Shown here: positions 3,254 through 26,328 of the stretch, piece after piece
How the letters are laid out: every line of letters starts with the position of its first letter
Position numbering within the stretch: the first letter of the stretch is position 1
Origin: a virus
Taxonomy: Duplodnaviria > Heunggongvirae > Uroviricota > Caudoviricetes
DNA length: 34,328 nucleotides
Virus record (IMG/VR): IMGVR_UViG_2526164597_000016
Reading direction: 5' to 3' (one strand)
Program-made: the position numbers and the translations under genes
The notes under the pieces: model-generated
Seen by the model: the letters and a program-made list of their open reading frames with translations, nothing else
The model's database searches: none
What the model was told of the DNA's origin: nothing

Positions 3254-3525
3254 GTATTCGTATTGAAATTGGCGAACGTTATGTCGTTACCAGTGACAGC
3301 TTTCAGTTTATTCTCCACGAGAAAAAGAGAGCGGAAAGCGGTAAAAACGCCGGTCAGGAATGGCTGTCGGTGGTTGGTTATTACCCGAAATTAAGCCAGC
3401 TCGTTTCCGGCCTGATGCATCACGATATTCTGACCGGAAGCGCAAAGTCTTTTGCTGATTTAAACGCGCAGGTTGAGCAACTCAGCAAGCGTTGTTCAGA
3501 GGCTTTTGGCTCATATGGCCGTTAA
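3250..3525 (+). CDS. Early hypothetical protein (P2 orf83 position)
   Basis: 91-aa ORF; ATGA overlap with the previous gene. Confidence 0.5.
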   Translation: MSIRIEIGERYVVTSDSFQFILHEKKRAESGKNAGQEWLSVVGYYPKLSQLVSGLMHHDILTGSAKSFADLNAQVEQLSKRCSEAFGSYGR

Positions 3526-5785
3526 AGCCTCCGGGCGTTTTGTCCCTCCGTCAGCATTTGCCGCAGGCACCGGTAAGACGACCGGTGCTTATGCATGGAA
3601 CGCGCCACGCGAGGCCGTCGGGCGCGAAAGACCCCTTACACGTGACGAGATGCGTCAGGTGCAAGGTGTTTTATCCACGATTAACCGCCTGCCTTACTTT
3701 TTGCGCTCGCTGTTTACTTCACGCTATGACTACATCCGGCGCAATAAAAGCCCGGTGCACGGGTTTTATTTCCTCACATCCACTTTTCAGCGTCGTTTAT
3801 GGCCGCGCATTGAGCGTGTGAATCAGCGCCATGAAATGAACACCGACACGTCGTTGCTGTTTCTGGCAGAGCGTGACCACTATGCGCGCCTGCCGGGAAT
3901 GAATGACAAGGAGCTGAAAAAGTTTGCCGCCCGTATCTCATCGCAGCTTTTCATGATGTATGAGGAACTCAGCGATGCCTGGGTGGATGCGCATGGCGAA
4001 AAAGAATCACTGTTTACGGATGAGGCTCAGGCTCACCTGTATGGTCATGTTGCTGGCGCTGCACGAGCTTTCAATATTTCCCCTCTCTACTGGAAAAAAT
4101 ACCGTAAAGGACAGATGACCACGAGGCAGGCATATTCTGCCATTGCCCGTCTGTTTAACGATGAGTGGTGGACTCATCAGCTTAAAGGCCAGCGTATGCG
4201 CTGGCATGAAGCGTTACTGATAGCTGTCGGGGAGGTCAATAAAGACCGTTCTCCTTATGCCAGTAAACACGCCATTCGTGATGTGCGTGCGCGCCGCCAG
4301 GCAAATCTGGAATTTCTTAAATCGTGTGATCTCGAAAACAGGGAAACCGGCGAGCGCATCGACCTTATCAGTAAGGTGATGGGCAGTATTTCTAATCCTG
4401 AAATTCGCCGGATGGAGCTGATGAACACCATTGCTGGTATTGAGCGTTACGCCGCAGCAGAGGGTGATGTGGGGATGTTTATCACGCTCACCGCGCCGTC
4501 AAAGTATCACCCGACACGTCAGGTTGGAAAAGGCGAAAGTAAAACCGTCCAGCTAAATCACGGCTGGAACGATGAGGCATTTAATCCAAAGGATGCGCAG
4601 CGTTATCTCTGCCGCATCTGGAGCCTGATGCGCACGGCATTCAAGGATAATGATTTACAGGTCTACGGTTTGCGTGTCGTCGAGCCACACCACGACGGAA
4701 CGCCGCACTGGCATATGATGCTTTTTTGTAATCCACGCCAGCGTAACCAGATTATCGAAATCATGCGTCGCTATGCGCTCAAAGAGGATGGTGACGAAAG
4801 AGGAGCCGCGCGAAACCGTTTTCAGGCAAAGCACCTTAACCGGGGCGGTGCTGCGGGATATATCGCGAAATACATTTCAAAAAACATCGACGGCTATGCA
4901 CTGGATGGTCAGCTCGATAACGATACCGGCAGGCCGCTGAAAGACACTGCCGCGGCTGTTACCGCATGGGCGTCAACGTGGCGCATTCCGCAATTTAAAA
5001 CGGTTGGCCTGCCGACAATGGGGGCTTACCGTGAACTACGCAAATTGCCTCGCGGCGTCAGCATTGCTGATGAGTTTGACGAACGCGTCGAGGCTGCACG
5101 CGCTGCCGCAGACAGTGGCGATTTTGCGCTGTATATCAGCGCGCAGGGTGGGGCAAATGTCCCGCGCGATTGTCAGACTGTCAGGGTCGCCCGTAGCCCG
5201 TCGGATGACGTTAACGAGTACGAGGAAGAGGTCGAGAGAGTGGTCGGCATTTACGCGCCGCATCTCGGCGCGCGTCATATTCATATCACCAGAACGACGG
5301 ACTGGCGCATTGTGCCGAAAGTTCCGGTCGTTCAGCCTTTGACTTTAAAAAGCGGCATCGCCGCGCCTCGGAGTCCTGTCAATAACTGTGGAAAACTCAC
5401 CGGTGGTGATACTTCGTTACCGGCTCCCACACCTTCTGAGCACGCCGCAGCAGTGCTTAATCTGGTTGATGACGGTGTTATCGAATGGAGTGACCCGGAG
5501 GTCGTGAGGGCGCTCAGAGGTGCATTAAAACACGGTCGGAGAACGCCAAGTCGTCAGCAAAGAAACGGAAGCCCGTTAAAACCACATGAAATTGCACCAT
5601 CGGCCAGACTGACCCGGTCGGAAAGAATGCAAATTACCCGTATCCGCGTTGACCTTGCTCAGAACGGTATCAGGCCGCAGCGATGGGAGCTTGAGGCGCT
5701 GGCGCGTGGCGCGACCGTAAATTATGATGGGAAAACGTTTTCATATCCGATTTCTGATGGTTGGGCGGGATTTGAAACAAACTAA
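3515..5785 (+). CDS. A: Rolling-circle replication initiator / endonuclease (P2 gpA-like); start taken at ATG 3515 (the ORF opens at TTG 3473)
   Basis: About 756 aa; N-terminus MAVKASGRFVPPSAFAAGTGK recognised as P2 gpA-like; position after B and the small ORFs. Confidence 0.85.
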   Translation: MAVKASGRFVPPSAFAAGTGKTTGAYAWNAPREAVGRERPLTRDEMRQVQGVLSTINRLPYFLRSLFTSRYDYIRRNKSPVHGFYFLTSTFQRRLWPRIERVNQRHEMNTDTSLLFLAERDHYARLPGMNDKELKKFAARISSQLFMMYEELSDAWVDAHGEKESLFTDEAQAHLYGHVAGAARAFNISPLYWKKYRKGQMTTRQAYSAIARLFNDEWWTHQLKGQRMRWHEALLIAVGEVNKDRSPYASKHAIRDVRARRQANLEFLKSCDLENRETGERIDLISKVMGSISNPEIRRMELMNTIAGIERYAAAEGDVGMFITLTAPSKYHPTRQVGKGESKTVQLNHGWNDEAFNPKDAQRYLCRIWSLMRTAFKDNDLQVYGLRVVEPHHDGTPHWHMMLFCNPRQRNQIIEIMRRYALKEDGDERGAARNRFQAKHLNRGGAAGYIAKYISKNIDGYALDGQLDNDTGRPLKDTAAAVTAWASTWRIPQFKTVGLPTMGAYRELRKLPRGVSIADEFDERVEAARAAADSGDFALYISAQGGANVPRDCQTVRVARSPSDDVNEYEEEVERVVGIYAPHLGARHIHITRTTDWRIVPKVPVVQPLTLKSGIAAPRSPVNNCGKLTGGDTSLPAPTPSEHAAAVLNLVDDGVIEWSDPEVVRALRGALKHGRRTPSRQQRNGSPLKPHEIAPSARLTRSERMQITRIRVDLAQNGIRPQRWELEALARGATVNYDGKTFSYPISDGWAGFETN

Positions 5786-5896
5786 CAATAATGATTGACA
5801 TGCTTGATTTTGTATTCACAAATCAAGCATCAAGTAAACATCGATGATGAGAAAGAACAATGCTACAATCCCCACAGCATTAGAAGGAGGTTTATC
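5786..5896 (+). promoter_or_regulatory. Promoter/operator region of the methyltransferase gene
   Basis: Perfect inverted repeat TGCTTGATTT 5801-5810 / AAATCAAGCA 5820-5829 (9-bp spacer) next to TTGACA 5795-5800; extended -10-like TGcTACAAT at 5861-5869; AGGAGG 5885-5890 six nt before the TTG start. Confidence 0.5.
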
Positions 5897-6946
5897 TTGA
5901 TTAAGGTTGTTGATTTATTCTGTGGCGCGGGTGGCTTGACTCACGGTCTTCAGAAGTCGGGGCTTAATGTAGTTGCAGGTTATGATATAGATGCAGCCTG
6001 TCGATTTGCCTATGAGACAAATAATAAATCACTCTTTGTCCAGAAAAGTGTTACAGACATTGAGGACGGCGAATTAGTTAAATATTTCGAAGGAGCGAAG
6101 GTTCGAGTTTTGGCTGGTTGTGCCCCATGCCAACCTTTTTCAAGCTATACCAATAGTGCTAAATTAGGGGTAGTACGTTCAAAAGATAAAAGATGGTCTT
6201 TGCTTTATAGCTTTGCTAAGCAAATTAAATTTGCAAAGCCAGATATTATTACAATGGAAAACGTTCCCCGAGTGGTGAATCATAAGGTTTTTAAGGACTT
6301 CATTAAGTCTCTTAAAAATGATGGCTATTTTGTTTGGTATGGGGTGGTGTTTTGTCCAGACTATGGAATGGCACAAAGTCGTTCAAGATTAGTGTTATTG
6401 GCATCAAAATATGGAGAAATAGAAATAATTCCACCAACTCATGAGAAGAATGATTATAAAACGGTGCGAGATATAATCGGTAATCTTCCTGAAATTAGTG
6501 CCGGTGCTGTTCACGCTGGAGATAAACTACATCGCTCTGCATCATTATCTGATATTAATATAAAAAGAATAATGGCATCAAAACCTGGTGGAACATGGCG
6601 TGATTGGCCAGAAGAGCTAAGAGCAAAATGTCATACAAAAGAAAGTGGTTCTACATATACTGCTGTATATGGGAGAATGTGTTGGGATAAACTTGGACCG
6701 ACAATTACAACTCAATGTATTGGATATGGGAATGGACGCTTTGGGCACCCTGTCCAAAATAGAGCATTAAGTTTAAGAGAGGCTGCGCTATTACAGTCAT
6801 TCCCAGAAAAGTATGAGTTTTGGCCTGATGATGTAAAAATTGAAATGAGAACAGTTGCGCGTTTAATAGGTAATGCTGTTCCTGTTAGGCTTGGTGAGGT
6901 CGTAGGTGAAACTATTTTAAAACATTTGTCAGAAATGAATATTTAA
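5897..6946 (+). CDS. DNA (cytosine-5)-methyltransferase (Dcm-like), probable TTG start
   Basis: Motif I DLFCGAGG, motif IV PCQPFS (catalytic Cys), motif VI ENV, motif VIII QSRSR, motif X GNAV; the ORF-track N-terminal extension from 5795 translates the promoter/palindrome and is probably not coding. Confidence 0.85.
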   Translation: MIKVVDLFCGAGGLTHGLQKSGLNVVAGYDIDAACRFAYETNNKSLFVQKSVTDIEDGELVKYFEGAKVRVLAGCAPCQPFSSYTNSAKLGVVRSKDKRWSLLYSFAKQIKFAKPDIITMENVPRVVNHKVFKDFIKSLKNDGYFVWYGVVFCPDYGMAQSRSRLVLLASKYGEIEIIPPTHEKNDYKTVRDIIGNLPEISAGAVHAGDKLHRSASLSDINIKRIMASKPGGTWRDWPEELRAKCHTKESGSTYTAVYGRMCWDKLGPTITTQCIGYGNGRFGHPVQNRALSLREAALLQSFPEKYEFWPDDVKIEMRTVARLIGNAVPVRLGEVVGETILKHLSEMNI

Positions 6947-6958
6947 AACTTATGTCAT

Positions 6959-6980
6959 CCCCCTGTCAAAAAACAGGGGG
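6959..6980. terminator. Hairpin between convergent genes, probable bidirectional terminator
   Basis: CCCCCTG (6959-6965), loop TCAAAAAA, CAGGGGG (6974-6980), lying between the methyltransferase stop (6946) and the ATPase stop (6987). Confidence 0.5.
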
Positions 6981-6986
6981 GTATAA

Positions 6987-8945
6987 TTAGATTCCCTCAA
7001 CTATTTTCATAATTCTAGCTGCATCATTCTTTTTGTCTTGATATTCAGCATAGGCTTGTTTTGATTGCACGATTAGGTCATTATATGTCAATATTTTTCC
7101 ATTGATAGAAAGTAATTGCATATTTATAAAGTGTTGGTTCTCTTGTAAATATCCAGAGCCAACCAGGAATATTACTTCTATATGCGGTATATTTCCACCT
7201 GGGCAATTTTTAGGGTTATTGGAGAACCATTGTGTCGTTGCCTGTACATATTTATTACCTTGTGCGACTAGGTTCATTATATCTGGGTGCACTTTAGGTC
7301 GTTTCATCTCAATAATTACATGCTTGCCAGAAACGGTTTTGAAAGCGATATCAATACGAGCACCGCTAGCAGCATCAGGGTTTATCTGTTTTAGTTCCTT
7401 GGTCAATGTTTGCTCCATAACAGATGTGCCTGTGACTCTTTCCCATGAAGGATCCAATAACCATAAATGATCATATAAATACATTTGTACAGCTCTTTCA
7501 AGCTGATTTTCATCAGTTATTTTTTGGAATTTTTCAATTACTTTAAGGCGTTGCGAAGTAATTTCATAAAACATGCTTGCTTCAATGTCATTGACAGATG
7601 CAAATACATCTTTAAAATTTTCTGATTGAAGGTTGCTTATTTTATCTAATGCATCAAGGTTGTCTTGAATTCTAAGTCTTTCAAAGGCTAATACCGTATT
7701 TTTTAATACGGTTTTTCTTGCTGCTTTTTGTTCTTCCTCATTACCAGAAAAACGGAATGTGTTTACTCGTCCAATTAACTTTTCGGCACTTTCTCTCTCA
7801 TGTTTTTTGAGAGAATTCAGCCATTCACTTACTATTGGAGTATTGCTTTTAACTTCATTTACTCCTTTTTCGCGTCTCCATTTATCCCAATCTTTATCGA
7901 TTAGTTGTAGCGTTCTTTCCAGAAAACCTTTAAGTACAGGGTATCTTGGATCATTCTGTTGTAGTTTTTGACGAGAAGATGTTGCCATATCAGGCTTTTC
8001 GTTATCATCTAGAAAATCGGCGACTATTTCACCGACCAGATAATTGGTGAATACTTTAGCACTTCCAAATTCTAATAATATGTCCTCCTCAAAAACACGT
8101 CCGTGAGAGATTACAGTAATGCTGTTGTTAGATATTTCAGGGTCTTTCTTTAACTGTGATGGCTTAACTACACTGCCAATGTACCCACTAACTTTTACAT
8201 CTTTTCCTTCAAAGGTAATAGTATTTGGTAATATGTTTTTTTGTGTGATGTTTGTGCAGGATTTTATCCTTTCAGGGTCGGATTCGCCAAATTCCCAAAT
8301 GAACTCGAGATCTGAAAGGAAATCTCTATCTGCCGGTGTAATATCGGTCCCATTAATTTTAACTGTAAAGTTATGGTTGGGGCCAATAATGCTAAATCGA
8401 CGAGCTATTCGCTTTCTGAGGTAAGTTTGAGTCCTATCAATGGCTTTTTTTAGTTCAAATAATTTAATTGTAGTGCCGTAAGCAAGATTTTCGGGTATTT
8501 CAAGGGAGTCAGCAATATAGTTTTTTGATTCTTTGATACTTTGCTGTAAATCTTTGACATCTACCTCAAAGGCCTGAGGCTGTTCCCCCTTTTTGTACGA
8601 ATAAACTTGGATTTTATTGGCAAGTGAAAACATGGCAAGCTTACCAATACCTTTTCTGCCCATAACTTGACGTTTTAGATGATCGCTTTTGGCTCTTCCA
8701 TGTTCCCTGCGAGCATAACCGACTTTTAGGAACTTATTAATAATGTCATCTTTAGACATGCCATGACCATCATCTTTAATGATGACCTCTCCTTTCTCAA
8801 CATCAAGTGTAATTTCTACATTTTGAGCATCTGCATCCCATGCATTTGATATAATCTCAGTTAGTACCGCGGGAGTATTGGAATAGAGACTCATCCCTAG
8901 GTGATTTAGCACATTCAAATCAATTTTAATTTCGAAATCTGACAT
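6987..8945 (-). CDS. GHKL (Bergerat-fold, MORC/MutL-like) ATPase with C-terminal PD-(D/E)xK-like nuclease motif; candidate defence or restriction effector
   Basis: N-terminal ATPase motifs EIISNAWDA (N box), DDGHGM (G1), GRKGIGKLA (G2); C-terminal RIDIAF ... HVIIEMKRP fits a D ... E-x-K nuclease signature; AAGGA precedes the ATG; gene is AT-rich by inspection. Confidence 0.7.
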   Translation of the reverse strand: MSDFEIKIDLNVLNHLGMSLYSNTPAVLTEIISNAWDADAQNVEITLDVEKGEVIIKDDGHGMSKDDIINKFLKVGYARREHGRAKSDHLKRQVMGRKGIGKLAMFSLANKIQVYSYKKGEQPQAFEVDVKDLQQSIKESKNYIADSLEIPENLAYGTTIKLFELKKAIDRTQTYLRKRIARRFSIIGPNHNFTVKINGTDITPADRDFLSDLEFIWEFGESDPERIKSCTNITQKNILPNTITFEGKDVKVSGYIGSVVKPSQLKKDPEISNNSITVISHGRVFEEDILLEFGSAKVFTNYLVGEIVADFLDDNEKPDMATSSRQKLQQNDPRYPVLKGFLERTLQLIDKDWDKWRREKGVNEVKSNTPIVSEWLNSLKKHERESAEKLIGRVNTFRFSGNEEEQKAARKTVLKNTVLAFERLRIQDNLDALDKISNLQSENFKDVFASVNDIEASMFYEITSQRLKVIEKFQKITDENQLERAVQMYLYDHLWLLDPSWERVTGTSVMEQTLTKELKQINPDAASGARIDIAFKTVSGKHVIIEMKRPKVHPDIMNLVAQGNKYVQATTQWFSNNPKNCPGGNIPHIEVIFLVGSGYLQENQHFINMQLLSINGKILTYNDLIVQSKQAYAEYQDKKNDAARIMKIVEGI

Positions 8946-9130
8946 ATAGTCGTTCCTTGCTGAGAGTTCATTTTAGTTTCATGCAATCAATAGGTTAGGC
9001 TGAAGATAAAACCTTAAGATAACCAAAGCAAGTGTTCATTAGCGGCTTTGTTTCATGACATGATGTGTGTCGCTTTTTGCATGAAACTGCATTTGTTTCT
9101 TATATCTGCTCTTTTTACATACTGCTAGTG

Positions 9131-9152
9131 TTGACATGGCTTTGACATGGCT
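9131..9152. repeat. Perfect tandem 11-bp direct repeat TTGACATGGCT x2 just upstream of cos
   Basis: Read directly: 9131-9141 and 9142-9152 are identical. Confidence 0.8.
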
Positions 9153-9188
9153 GTGCAACCGCATTAAAACCGCCCCATGAAGCGGGCG

Positions 9189-9207
9189 GGCGAGGCGGGG
9201 AAAGCAC
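9189..9207. other. cos: cos site: 19-nt cohesive-end sequence GGCGAGGCGGGGAAAGCAC
   Basis: Exact match to the P2 cohesive-end 19-mer as I recall it, located just beyond the end of the portal gene as in P2. Confidence 0.7.
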
Positions 9208-9376: not shown

Positions 9377-10411
9377 TCAACCGTTGTCAGTGTCCAGTGA
9401 GTAGTTTTTAAAGCGGATGACCTCCTGACCGAGCCAGCCGTTTATTTCCCGAATTCTGTCCTGTAACGGGATAAGCTCATTGCGGACAAAGACCTTTGCC
9501 ACTTTCTCAATATCTCCCAGTGACCCGACGTTCTCCGGCTTGCCGCCCATCAACTGAAAGGGGATACGGTGCGCGTCCAGCAGGTCAGCGGCGCTGGCTT
9601 TTTTGATATTAAAAAAATCGTCCTTCGTTGCCACTTCACTGAGCGGGATAATTTTAATGCCGTCGGCTTTCCCCTGTGGGGCATAGAGAAACAGATTTTT
9701 AAAGTTATTGCGGCCTTTCGACTTCACCATGTTTTCGCGAAGCATTTCGATATCGTTGCGGTCCTGCACGGCATCGGTGACGTACATGATGTATCCGGCA
9801 TGTGCGCCGTTTTCGTAATACTTGCGGCGGAACAGCGTGGCCGACTCATTCAGCCAGGCAGAGTTAAGGGCGCTGAGATATTCCGGCAGGCCGTACAGCT
9901 CCTGATTAATATCCGGCTCCAGCAGGTGAAACACGGAGCCGGGCGCGAAGGCTGTCGGCTCGTTGAAGGACGGCACCCACCAGTAAACATCCTCCTCCAC
10001 GCCACGGCGGGTATATTTTGCCGGTGAGGTTTCCAGTCTGATGACCTTACCGGTGGTGCTGTAACGCTTTTCCAGAAACGCATTACCGAACACCAGAAAA
10101 TCCAGCACAAAGCGGCTGAAATCCTGCTGGGAAAGCCACGGATGCGGGATAAATGTCGAGGCCAGAATATTGCGTTTGACGTAAATCGGCGAGCTGTGAT
10201 GCACGGCAGCACGCAGGCTTTTCGCCAGACCGGTAAAGCTGACCGGCGGCTCATACCATCTGCCGTTACTGATGCACTCGACGTAATCCAGAATGTCACG
10301 GCGGTCGAGTACCGGCACCGGCTCACCAAAGGTGAATGCCTCCATTTTCGGGGCGCTGGCGGTGATTGTTTTTGCCGCAGGTCGCGGTGTTTTCCCTTTT
10401 TTCTTACTCAT
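9377..10411 (-). CDS. Q: Portal protein (P2 gpQ)
   Basis: 344 aa, same length as P2 gpQ; start overlaps the P stop (ATGA); adjacent to cos. Confidence 0.9.
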   Translation of the reverse strand: MSKKKGKTPRPAAKTITASAPKMEAFTFGEPVPVLDRRDILDYVECISNGRWYEPPVSFTGLAKSLRAAVHHSSPIYVKRNILASTFIPHPWLSQQDFSRFVLDFLVFGNAFLEKRYSTTGKVIRLETSPAKYTRRGVEEDVYWWVPSFNEPTAFAPGSVFHLLEPDINQELYGLPEYLSALNSAWLNESATLFRRKYYENGAHAGYIMYVTDAVQDRNDIEMLRENMVKSKGRNNFKNLFLYAPQGKADGIKIIPLSEVATKDDFFNIKKASAADLLDAHRIPFQLMGGKPENVGSLGDIEKVAKVFVRNELIPLQDRIREINGWLGQEVIRFKNYSLDTDNG

Positions 10412-18628: not shown

Positions 18629-19414
18629 TTATGAGTGATTTTTATTTGATGCTTTGTATTCTAAAACCTTCTTATTGGCGTAAAAGAATTTTGTATATGA
18701 CAGGAATATAACCAGACCTGAAGTGAAATAGACGAGGGATAGTATTAATAATGCTTTTTTGTGACTGTTATTATCTTTAATCTCCTGGCTTAACCATTCG
18801 GAGTCCTCCTCGTTTAGCTGTAAGAGCTTATTGCAGGCGATTTCAGGAAGTGTGTCTTTTATAAATACGTTTTGCAGTCTCTTGCAATCGGCAAGGCTAT
18901 AAGTTTTATTAAATTCAACTGCTTTATTTTTGAAGGATAAAAGAACTTTGTCACTATAAACATAGTACATCATATTTTTATATGGTATGCCTATGGCATC
19001 TCTTACTATAGCGGATTGTTTGTTGTGTATATAACATGCGAAGAGAATATAAATAATACTGGCCAGAATTACAATTATTGTTTTAATTATGTGTGGTGGT
19101 TTTGTTATGTCACCCCAGATGCGAGCAAGGAAAAAATACGATGTTTTTAGTTTTCCATCAATCAGTCCCTGCTGTATCATTCTCACATTTTCAATGCCTG
19201 ATACATTGATTCCGTTAATTATTTTAAATAGTTGAATGTCGCGCCACTCGCGGTCAAGTCTTTTTAATTTTTTGTCTGAATATCCAAAATTGAAATAATG
19301 TGCAATAAGCCTCATAAGGTTACTTTTACCAAAGCTAAAAAATGCTAATACTGCAAAGCTACAAAGGAAAAAAACGATTAGCCCCCACACATTAGTCACA
19401 TTATAGCTGACCAT
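18629..19414 (-). CDS. Accessory (moron) membrane protein of unknown function, about 3 TM helices (P2 orf30 position)
   Basis: 261 aa, AT-rich and on the opposite strand to the flanking tail genes; strong AAGGAG before the ATG; hydrophobic segments VWGLIVFFLCSFAVLAFFSF, IIKTIIVILASIIYILFACYI, ALLILSLVYFTSGLVIFLSY. Confidence 0.6.
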   Translation of the reverse strand: MVSYNVTNVWGLIVFFLCSFAVLAFFSFGKSNLMRLIAHYFNFGYSDKKLKRLDREWRDIQLFKIINGINVSGIENVRMIQQGLIDGKLKTSYFFLARIWGDITKPPHIIKTIIVILASIIYILFACYIHNKQSAIVRDAIGIPYKNMMYYVYSDKVLLSFKNKAVEFNKTYSLADCKRLQNVFIKDTLPEIACNKLLQLNEEDSEWLSQEIKDNNSHKKALLILSLVYFTSGLVIFLSYTKFFYANKKVLEYKASNKNHS

Positions 19415-24985: not shown

Positions 24986-25921
24986 ATGGCTACTTATGCT
25001 TCTTATTTACCAGAATCACAAATTATCACTTTGTGCAAGGATTTCCCAGCGTTTACTGATCCTGAAAAATTAGATGGATTCATTAATCCAGAACAGTTTG
25101 GCGTGTTTTTTCATGAGTGGATTCATTTTCTTCACAATATTTCCACAATTAATGGGTTTTCTATTTTTTGCACGCAAAACATCCTGTGGTCTAATTTTCG
25201 CTGGGCAATGGACAATCAGGATGTATGTCTTGGTTCAAATGACATGGATCCAGCACATATCGAATCAAACAAAAATTTTCTCAGTTACATTCGTTCCAAT
25301 AGGAGTCTGCATAAATGTAACTTACCTTATTATGTAAAAGTAAACGACTTGTATTTTGAGGATGCAATAATCCATGACATGGAGGTTGCTGACGGTAGTG
25401 TTATATGTACATCATTAATAAAGTGTAGAATTTCTCATTCTGAAAACAAATACGATCTAGATTTAGGCGTGCTTGAAATACTTGAATCCGCAGCTTTTAT
25501 GCTTGAATGTAAGTGTATTAATGCGATGAATGGCTTCCCTCAAGAGGCACCCTTTTATCCGTATCATACTATCAAGGGCTTAGCAGCGAAAATTGCTCCG
25601 TCATTAAATGATGAAGATATTATTTGTTGTATGTTAGCTTCTTTGCAATCTAATAACCCTCCCCAAGTATTATTCAATCTACTACATAAATGTGAATTAT
25701 TACATTCTGATTGTAGGTATGAACATCTAGTGGCGGAGGTGAAAAAACAATTAAGCGAACAAGATCAAATAATAAGCGAGTCACTTAATCAAATAATTCA
25801 AATGATTCCTGTTGATGAACCGATGGGAAACTTTATCAAGCTTACTCTTAACAGAATAAGTAACAATTTGAACTATAGAAAGCAAAAACCGTTTTTTGAG
25901 TTAGATATAATAAAAAAATAG
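24986..25921 (+). CDS. Accessory protein with HExxH motif (possible zinc metallopeptidase-like), in the P2 Z/fun position
   Basis: 311 aa; AT-rich; GAGGA six nt before the ATG; motif FFHEWIHFLHN contains H-E-x-x-H. Confidence 0.6.
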   Translation: MATYASYLPESQIITLCKDFPAFTDPEKLDGFINPEQFGVFFHEWIHFLHNISTINGFSIFCTQNILWSNFRWAMDNQDVCLGSNDMDPAHIESNKNFLSYIRSNRSLHKCNLPYYVKVNDLYFEDAIIHDMEVADGSVICTSLIKCRISHSENKYDLDLGVLEILESAAFMLECKCINAMNGFPQEAPFYPYHTIKGLAAKIAPSLNDEDIICCMLASLQSNNPPQVLFNLLHKCELLHSDCRYEHLVAEVKKQLSEQDQIISESLNQIIQMIPVDEPMGNFIKLTLNRISNNLNYRKQKPFFELDIIKK

Positions 25922-25938
25922 CAGAAAAAACTGAGTTT

Positions 25939-26328
25939 ATGAATGAAGTAATACAGAAATTCGGTGGTTGCACTATCATCCAGGTAAGACATGGAGATGA
26001 TAATGAACCACAGCGTGATATTATGTATGACTTTTGCTTACCTGAAAATAATGATTCAATTTTATTTGGTTCGAAAATGCTACGCGCTTGTTTTCACTTT
26101 ATATTTATTCACTTTAAACTTTCTGGTGAAATCATGAAGACAGAAGAATTAAATATTTCGCCGCGTAATAAATGCCCATTTTATACTGTTTGCTGTGCAT
26201 CAATTCGAGCTAATAATAGTAATATCTGCGCTGAATCCCCTTGGAAATCAATGTCTATTGATGACAACAAAGGTTGTTATTATGCAGCAGCGATTAAAGC
26301 TACTAACCCACCAGTTTTGCCGGATTAA
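25939..26328 (+). CDS. Small Cys-rich accessory protein, co-oriented 17 bp downstream of the HExxH gene
   Basis: 129 aa with eight Cys (GGCTII, DFCLPE, RACFHF, CPFYTVCCA, NICAES, KGCYY); AT-rich; weak ribosome-binding site. Confidence 0.5.
   Translation: MNEVIQKFGGCTIIQVRHGDDNEPQRDIMYDFCLPENNDSILFGSKMLRACFHFIFIHFKLSGEIMKTEELNISPRNKCPFYTVCCASIRANNSNICAESPWKSMSIDDNKGCYYAAAIKATNPPVLPD

Follow-up and report, generated by a model that had tools for sequence, protein, structure and literature searches.

What does a P2-like prophage carry at the site where phage P2 keeps tin and old, and does that cargo belong to a system that already has a name? The question was put to a 34,328-nucleotide stretch of viral DNA (IMG/VR record IMGVR_UViG_2526164597_000016), hereafter "the window". 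A first-pass annotation had suggested that the two genes found there, a DNA methyltransferase and an ATPase-nuclease, form a methylation-linked restriction module that matches no named system. The guess about restriction agrees with what we find (a family-model score of 751 bits and a conserved linkage to an m5C methylase); the claim of novelty does not. Very probably, the island is moron cargo of the P2 tin/old hotspot that encodes a two-gene Type II restriction-modification (R-M) system of the HgiDII/BbrUII family. The cassette is already annotated and is an ordinary R-M pair, not a new defence system.

The cargo island and its setting

The island is ∼3.4 kb long, with a GC content of ∼0.36 compared with ∼0.54 for its flanks. 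In the composition of the window, GC lies between 0.33 and 0.40 over positions 5800-9000 and between 0.50 and 0.59 on either side. Homology to P2-like phages ends directly after gpA (3473-5785), and P2 DNA homology is absent from that point to ∼9154, where it restarts ahead of gpQ (9377-10411, minus strand). The extent of the cargo is therefore taken as ∼5786-9153. The interval originally proposed, 5786-9188, was correctly located, and only its right end had to be drawn in. The right limit of the hotspot is the backbone sequence GGCGAGGCGGGGAAAGCAC, which we take to be P2 cos (Table 1). The description of the hotspot as filled by two AT-rich convergent genes between gpA and gpQ/cos flanks was borne out. 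The island contains these two genes only, with stop codons 40 nt apart and a hairpin between them, and includes no controller (C) protein. No homology to tin or old was detected in either cargo protein using domain and PADLOC profiles.

The shared hairpin noted in the first-pass annotation was recovered with a dG of −17.6 kcal/mol and a z score of −3.1 relative to shuffled sequences. It is likely to be a bidirectional terminator; its T-tracts are weak, and this role is therefore inferred. A perfect inverted repeat (ATGCTTGATTT / AAATCAAGCAT) lies between the gpA stop codon, which it follows closely, and the methylase gene; it may serve as a gpA terminator or as an operator. A consensus promoter scan returned 9 matches versus 10.5 expected from shuffles. 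Given this lack of excess, no promoter assignments are claimed.

Table 1. Coordinates of features of the island and its right border (positions in the window)
Feature	Position	Strand	Basis or remark
AT-rich cargo island, P2 gpA-cos-gpQ (tin/old) hotspot	5786..9153	.	GC drop and loss of P2-like homology
Perfect 11-bp inverted repeat ATGCTTGATTT / AAATCAAGCAT, 9-nt spacer	5800..5830	.	Sequence scan
Ribosome-binding site AGAAGGAGG	5882..5890	+	6 nt ahead of methylase TTG start
C5-cytosine DNA methyltransferase, 349 aa	5897..6946	+	PF00145, TIGR00675, PADLOC MTase_II
Hairpin between convergent stop codons	6957..6982	.	10-bp stem
BbrUII/HgiDII-family restriction endonuclease, paraMORC3 architecture, 652 aa	6987..8945	-	NF050001.1, PADLOC REase_II
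C-terminal PD-(D/E)xK nuclease domain, residues 479-652	6990..7511	-	
Middle S5/transducer-like beta-rich domain (∼191-330), then helical linker (∼334-475)	7521..8375	-	AF2 secondary structure
N-terminal GHKL ATPase domain, ∼ residues 1-190	8376..8945	-	HATPase_c_3, invariant residues, Foldseek
Nuclease-gene upstream (promoter/regulatory) region	8946..9153	-	3 copies of GTTTCATG(C), direct and inverted
Presumed P2 cos cohesive-end sequence GGCGAGGCGGGGAAAGCAC	9188..9206	+	Backbone, right limit of hotspot; sequence read directly

That this position is a variable defence site, as the first-pass annotation had stated, agrees with Rousset 2022 (PMC9122126), where the P2 gpA-gpQ interval is a defence hotspot whose short cassettes are exchanged among P2-like phages. 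Type II and Type III R-M systems are already known from such hotspots, and the EcoO109I R-M system is carried by P4-like satellites (Rousset 2022, PMC9122126). Because a P2 tin/old hotspot carrying classical R-M has thus been described, the discovery value of the island is small. The window cassette lies outside the set of systems tested in that study. Among the entries listed in its supplementary tables, the domain arrangement "DNA_methylase + HATPase_c_3" is present, and the exact island proteins have no sequence match. The island has in common with the P2 cargo its insertion site beside cos and the logic of swapped short cassettes, but is not homologous to Tin or to Old, the latter being an ABC ATPase with a TOPRIM nuclease.

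The methyltransferase

The methylase open reading frame (5795-6946, plus strand) matches the Pfam DNA_methylase domain PF00145 (1.3e-55), TIGR00675 and PADLOC MTase_II (3e-88). Translation most likely begins at the TTG at 5897, the start used in both the PhiR44_1 and the RefSeq annotations. The exact protein is already annotated as "DNA cytosine methyltransferase". The expected m5C motifs are present: FCGAGG (I), P77-C78 (IV), ENV at residues 121-123 (VI), QSRSR at 160-164 (VIII) and GNAVP at 325-329 (X). These motifs and the target-recognition region (∼ residues 181-280) are kept in 54 homologues linked to the restriction endonuclease, with the latter region aligning without gaps at identities of 0.42 to 0.65.

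The ATPase-nuclease

In the product of the convergent gene a GHKL ATPase is joined to a PD-(D/E)xK nuclease, as first proposed; PF00145 in the methylase, HATPase_c_3 in this protein (residues 26-149, 2.3e-25) and fold matches uphold the domain calls for both genes. GHKL motif I is formed by E30 and N34, motif II by D58, G60 and G62 (DDGHGM), and the lid (motif III) by G96-RKGIGK-L103. The catalytic residues of the nuclease are E483, D498, D532, E546-x-K548 and Q562. The DDGHGM and E-x-K motifs singled out in the first-pass annotation are invariant, as are the other GHKL residues and the PD-(D/E)xK catalytic residues, in 28 homologues of 44 to 82% identity.

Foldseek superposes the N-terminal and middle domains on Hsp90/TRAP1 (E ∼1e-14), the middle domain aligning with that of Hsp90. 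Together with the helical linker, the middle domain is probably the region that clamps DNA and reads its sequence. Note that fold searches using the whole protein were swamped by Hsp90, and the nuclease fold became visible with a separate model of the C-terminal domain, which resembles the nuclease cores of McrC and of MspJI/AspBHI-type enzymes. A PDB sequence search with the 652-aa protein found no solved family member and gave only GHKL-domain matches to HtpG, TRAP1 and MutL.

Family membership and existing names

The 652-aa protein scores 751.4 bits against NF050001.1, the NCBIfam equivalog "BbrUII/HgiDII family restriction enzyme" (cutoff 550), and the alignment is full length, with residues 4-651 covering profile positions 1-658 of 659. 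PADLOC REase_II matches it at 2.3e-91. Membership of this family is established, as are the domain architecture and the catalytic residues. PGAP annotation in RefSeq is mixed: of the E. coli genomes that match, some carry the exact protein under the BbrUII/HgiDII name and others list it as "ATP-binding protein". The GenBank record of phage PhiR44_1, on which a literature search found no paper, labels the pair "ParaMORC3" and "Dcm". The former name goes back to Iyer, Abhiman and Aravind 2008 (PMC2292703), in which paraMORC3 proteins have GHKL and S5 domains and, at the C terminus, a restriction-endonuclease-fold domain with the residues E-D-ExK; they are prevalent in Proteobacteria and Bacteroidetes, their genes share R-M operons with Dcm genes, and they were proposed to loop DNA. 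This architecture is identical to that of the 652-aa protein, in which the ATP-binding motifs are intact, the middle domain is S5-like and the nuclease is of the E-D-ExK type. ParaMORC3 is a second name for the BbrUII/HgiDII endonuclease family, with no difference in kind. The pair or its family had therefore been named by NF050001, PADLOC REase_II, RefSeq, the PhiR44_1 record and Iyer 2008. The first-pass annotation had itself held that strong homology to a characterised system would count against novelty, and such homology is what was found.

Both prototypes resemble the island pair. The HgiDII system of Herpetosiphon giganteus Hpa2 (GTCGAC, m5C) has an m5C methylase of ∼350 aa, like that of the island, and an endonuclease of ∼650 aa with an N-terminal GHKL domain (PMC2441816) and a C-terminal nuclease. 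Its host and context differ from the E. coli P2-like prophage hotspot considered here, and the likeness is drawn through NF050001, the model that is named after HgiDII and that the 652-aa protein passes. M.HgiDII is an experimentally characterised m5C methylase of GTCGAC (PMC5867850). BbrUII (BbrII) of Bifidobacterium breve UCC2003 belongs to the same endonuclease family by NCBIfam name, and is chromosomal in an actinobacterial host, unlike the island. PMC5867850 and PMC5005818 describe M.BbrUII as an m5C homologue of M.HgiDII that recognises GTCGAC; they contradict the introduction of another paper, in which it is called an N6-adenine methylase. BbrUII also acts as a barrier against incoming DNA.

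From family membership, the island pair is predicted to share the GTCGAC specificity. The grounds for this prediction are the NCBIfam equivalog call and the conserved target-recognition region of the methylase. Avoidance of GTCGAC in the window is uninformative, since the 4 sites present do not differ significantly from the 6.8 expected.

Linkage to the methylase and alternative readings

A homologous m5C methylase, 35 to 56% identical, adjoins the nuclease gene in 58 of 80 distant genomes from diverse phyla. Within the gammaproteobacterial clade of the window protein, the tree places a convergent methylase at every locus except one (L016), and the convergent pair recurs at 45 to 59% identity in Alcanivorax, Mannheimia and Shewanella. 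Linkage to the methylase and co-conservation with it are established; chance neighbourhood would not be expected to produce co-travel at ∼50% identity together with a conserved target-recognition region. In the other ∼22 of the 80, no methylase lies next to the nuclease gene. These solo members sit among other defence genes and pass NF050001 at 712 to 796 bits, so that passing the model is no proof of classical R-M behaviour; most of them belong to one of two separate clades, the Cenarchaeum paralogues and the Actinobacteria.

The solo members bear on the most serious alternative, in which the nuclease would be a self-sufficient Shedu-type defence (type I-D, GHKL-DUF4263) like VcSduA and the methylase an independent orphan or anti-restriction enzyme. 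VcSduA, from the V. cholerae WASA lineage, shares the architecture of the 652-aa protein and is described as "previously annotated as paraMORC3"; it acts alone in E. coli, needs both its ATPase and its nuclease residues, is encoded by a single non-toxic gene, and provides non-abortive, DNA-targeting defence (PMC12137116). As described, it joins a GHKL ATPase to a DUF4263-type PD-(D/E)xK nuclease, and its E27 and K557 are equivalent to E30 and K548 of the 652-aa protein. VcSduA has no methylase, however, whereas the 652-aa protein is locked to one. Shedu is a single protein with no modification partner, and here a methylase adjoins the gene in nearly all of the clade, travels with it across phyla with its target-recognition region conserved, and is missing largely from the two solo clades. 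No large V. cholerae cluster was present among the 120 closest relatives of the 652-aa protein, which places VcSduA probably below ∼44% identity. We consider this alternative improbable for the island. The related suggestion in the first-pass annotation, an orphan methylase beside an independent effector, is likewise not favoured in the window clade, although the quarter or so of members without a methylase keeps it from being absurd for the family as a whole.

A modification-dependent (Type IV-like) nuclease, striking foreign methylated DNA while the methylase serves an unrelated role, is a very remote prospect. GHKL/MORC proteins have been associated with the reading of epigenetic marks (Iyer 2008, PMC2292703), and the resemblance of the C-terminal domain to McrC and MspJI/AspBHI-type cores points the same way. 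Against this, domain searches of the 652-aa protein revealed no recognisable modified-base reader (SRA, EVE or PUA), conserved pairing with one methylase lineage suits protection and not targeting, and HgiDII and BbrUII, after which the family is named, are Type IIP enzymes of the classical kind (PMC2441816, PMC5867850, PMC5005818); the reading was rejected. Least credible of all, and also rejected, is assignment of the methylase to DISARM (DrmMII) or Druantia (DruM), or of the ATPase to MZA as MzaB: DrmMII (1.4e-90) and DruM (3.5e-74) are among the best PADLOC matches of the methylase and the GHKL domain matches MzaB weakly, but this similarity is generic to m5C methylases and GHKL domains, the MzaB equivalog scores 31.7 bits against a cutoff of 850, and a two-gene, 3.4-kb island has no room for the partner genes DrmA/B/C, DruA-E or MzaA/C/D/E.

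Proposed mechanism and relation to Shedu

For the R-M cassette, we propose the following scheme. The 349-aa methylase would place 5-methylcytosine on the family target site, predicted to be GTCGAC, and so shield the chromosome, the prophage and progeny DNA, while the C-terminal PD-(D/E)xK domain of the partner would cut unmethylated sites of incoming DNA. By analogy with MutL, Hsp90 and MORC, ATP binding would most likely cause the GHKL and transducer domains to dimerise, so that DNA would be clamped and two FokI/NucS-like nuclease domains would meet. Convergent genes with a shared terminator hairpin would each have a separate promoter. The lysogen would gain restriction of phages and plasmids that bear unmethylated sites. 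As with other Type II R-M pairs, loss of the prophage is probably penalised (addiction), and the cassette may stabilise it.

The interest that remains is mechanistic, and concerns the role of the ATPase domain and the existence of methylase-less members. The BbrUII/HgiDII family overlaps the recently validated GHKL-type Shedu. We tentatively raise a broader reading, which we think somewhat doubtful: HgiDII-family "Type II" enzymes, rather than being plain Type IIP enzymes, may belong to the lineage of GHKL-type Shedu (VcSduA) and work as GHKL clamp nucleases driven by ATP, with the cognate m5C methylase providing self/non-self discrimination in most members and some other means of self-protection in about a quarter. 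If this were true, the P2 cassette would be a convenient E. coli model joining classical R-M and Shedu. Small and natively expressed from a prophage of E. coli, it would lend itself in practice to work on that link. Among the solo members, one Cenarchaeum genome encodes six paralogues of the nuclease family.

The island and its borders

The first feature of the window is the integrase of a P2-like prophage, the same one that is adjoined by cpxP in E. coli APEC O2-211. Its gpA-gpQ island contains two convergent ORFs, a C5-cytosine methyltransferase (the methylase) and a GHKL-ATPase/nuclease (the REase), and has a GC content of 0.33-0.40, versus 0.50-0.59 on both flanks. Two AT-rich, opposite-strand genes in the gpA-cos-Q interval had been described in the first-pass annotation, and the ORFs, the drop in GC and the flanking genes agree with this. 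Its positions were also right, except that the cargo stops ~35 nt short of where it had been taken to end, as similarity to other P2-like phages picks up again at ~9154. The sequence GGCGAGGCGGGGAAAGCAC at 9188-9206 is presumably the P2 cohesive-end (cos) sequence. A perfect tandem duplication of the 11-mer TTGACATGGCT (9131-9152) lies exactly at the junction of cargo and P2 backbone, ~35 nt before cos. Each copy includes a TTGACA −35-like hexamer; the duplication may have been left behind by recombination or may serve as a promoter element. The gpA-gpQ interval was established as a defence hotspot by Rousset et al. 2022 (PMC9122126), and a DNA_methylase + HATPase_c_3 arrangement is among the rows of their locus table.

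Features of the island and its immediate neighbours
Feature	Position	Strand	Remarks
Replication gene A	3473-5785		left neighbour of island
C5-cytosine methyltransferase ORF	5795-6946	+	Pfam PF00145, 1.3e-55
Hairpin, 10-bp stem	6957-6982		between convergent stops; dG −17.6 kcal/mol, z −3.1
REase ORF, 652 aa	6987-8945	−	HATPase_c_3 at N-terminus
Portal gene Q	9377-10411	−	right neighbour of island

Gene products and family assignment

Translation of the methylase most likely starts from the TTG at 5897, giving 349 aa; this codon is preceded by a ribosome-binding site (AGAAGGAGG) and is also the start chosen in public annotations and for the closest proteins in the databases. The protein matches PADLOC Type II MTase models (3e-88). 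Over its whole length, the REase scores 751 bits against NF050001.1 (“BbrUII/HgiDII family restriction enzyme”), an NCBIfam equivalog model with a curated cutoff of 550 bits, and it matches PADLOC Type II REase models (2e-91). When 28 homologues (44-82% identity) were aligned, the GHKL motifs (E30, N34, D58-G60-G62 in DDGHGM, G96-RKGIGK-L103) and the full PD-(D/E)xK set (E483, D498, D532, E546-x-K548, Q562) were both invariant, bearing out the proposal of an ATPase and an E-x-K nuclease in one protein. The accompanying claim that the pair belongs to no named system must be withdrawn, since the profile searches and existing annotations place it in a known family. Names for this family date from 1991 and 2008, and public records already annotate the present sequence accordingly.

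The stop codons of the two ORFs are 40 nt apart, on either side of the hairpin. No promoters were assigned because a scan for consensus promoters did not exceed the level in shuffled sequence. The convergent layout, the terminator-like hairpin and the lack of a controller protein among the island's two ORFs suggest that each gene has an independent promoter. Three copies of GTTTCATG(C) occur 5' of the REase start (8975-9088), two of them forming a perfect 12-nt inverted repeat (AGTTTCATGCAA / TTGCATGAAACT, 90 nt apart). These look like operator sites, though the island has no regulator gene.

Occurrence

Of 5,426 complete E. coli genomes, 30 contain the locus (99.7-100% identity), flanked in all 30 by the replication endonuclease and portal genes. 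In RefSeq the products are called “BbrUII/HgiDII family restriction enzyme” (“ATP-binding protein” in older records) and “DNA cytosine methyltransferase”. Identical proteins are encoded by at least 1,000 contigs. In phage PhiR44_1 (PV340563.1), which was propagated on E. coli C, the cassette is found again, its genes labelled “ParaMORC3” and “Dcm protein”. P2-like prophages in other genera have the REase/methylase cassette as well, at other insertion points: in Mannheimia between tail gene D and the regulatory region (locus L004, 5001-7996), between repressor and integrase in Shewanella baltica (L005, 5001-8132), and beside the CI repressor gene in V. cholerae (L006, 6001-7979; 61% identity, the only relative found in that species). 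Apparently this phage group captured the cassette repeatedly.

Linkage of REase and methylase

In every close or intermediate relative from Alcanivorax, Mannheimia and Shewanella (45-59% identity), a convergent m5C methylase of ~350 aa lies immediately downstream. When one genome per species was scanned, relatives turned up in 344 stretches; the 80 best loci (36-44% identity) come from Proteobacteria, Bacteroidota, Chloroflexi, Actinobacteria, Acidobacteria and archaea. An adjacent m5C methylase, 35-56% identical to that of the window, was found at 58 of these 80; it is convergent in gammaproteobacterial loci and elsewhere usually upstream on the same strand. In a neighbour-joining tree, every locus in the clade of the window's REase has a convergent methylase except one (L016). 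This pattern marks the two genes as a co-inherited R-M pair, not chance neighbours. Among 54 linked methylases, the target-recognition region (residues ~181-280; 0.42-0.65 identity, gapless) is as conserved as the catalytic motifs, which argues for a single shared specificity. Note that at the distant loci L007-L010, L025, L040 and L075 the convergent methylase does not abut the REase but lies ~415-450 bp away, a gap in which a small additional ORF or a regulator would fit.

At ~22 of the 80 best loci no homologous methylase is adjacent. Among the genes around them, Pfam models identified one DNA_methylase and one N6_N4_Mtase, the remainder being other defence genes (e.g., GmrSD, an AspBHI-like enzyme, AAA_15, PLD, HNH). 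Most solo members belong to one of two clades, an Actinobacteria group and six Cenarchaeum paralogues of one genome, and solo members reach 712-796 bits on NF050001, so this model cannot tell linked from solo. The archaeal sponge-symbiont genome concerned (Cenarchaeum MAG chromosome OY282369.1) has at least six full-length GHKL-nuclease paralogues (L034, L041, L043, L048, L053, L083); each passes the BbrUII/HgiDII model and lacks a homologous methylase next to it.

Mechanism and alternatives

We conclude that the cassette is very likely a prophage-borne Type II R-M system, and the methylation-linked restriction module first suggested is upheld by the family match and the conserved methylase pairing. 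The methylase would mark the family's site, and the nuclease would cut DNA lacking the mark. The site is predicted, with reasonable confidence, to be GTCGAC. M.HgiDII was characterised by experiment as an m5C methylase for this sequence, which the homologous m5C enzyme M.BbrUII also recognises (PMC5867850; PMC5005818). One introduction calls M.BbrUII an N6-adenine methylase (PMC5829577); we regard this as a slip, and m5C is favoured by the two former papers as well as by homology to M.HgiDII. Going by MutL, Hsp90 and MORC, the GHKL domain probably dimerises when it binds ATP; the dimer would close on DNA as a clamp and bring together two non-specific FokI/NucS-like cleavage domains.

R.HgiDII was assigned an N-terminal GHKL domain in 2008, its C-terminal domain being left unassigned (Orlowski and Bujnicki, PMC2441816). 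The REase shares its architecture with paraMORC3, defined that year as GHKL + S5 + a C-terminal restriction-endonuclease-fold domain with E-D-ExK motifs, and occurring in R-M operons alongside cytosine methylases (Iyer, Abhiman and Aravind, PMC2292703). The same layout is seen in VcSduA of pandemic V. cholerae, which joins a GHKL ATPase to a DUF4263 nuclease and was “previously annotated as paraMORC3”; alone it defends in E. coli with no toxicity, requiring the ATPase glutamate and the nuclease lysine (PMC12137116). This single-gene activity, like the solo loci, would fit an orphan methylase beside a Shedu-like solo effector, but the co-inheritance of the methylase, at most of the best loci and nearly throughout the window's clade, makes that arrangement improbable. 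VcSduA itself is probably only a distant relative, because the 120 nearest relatives of the REase include no large V. cholerae cluster. A Type IV-like reading is highly unlikely, and gene content together with the scores practically excludes that the pair belongs to DISARM, Druantia or MZA. The remaining value of the Type II R-M cassette lies in the ATPase mechanism of the BbrUII/HgiDII family and its relation to GHKL-type Shedu.

Other cargo positions

The second P2 cargo position (Z/fun site, 24986-26328, flanked by tail-fibre assembly gene G and sheath gene FI) holds two ORFs of 311 aa and 129 aa in different frames, with no Pfam or PADLOC matches. The window probably carries a frameshift here, because APEC O2-211 has a single 447-aa hypothetical protein at this site. 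At the P2 orf30 position, where the virion-morphogenesis gene and baseplate gene V are the neighbours, an opposite-strand ORF of 261 aa (18629-19414, minus), without Pfam or PADLOC matches and “hypothetical” in RefSeq, is another uncharacterised moron.
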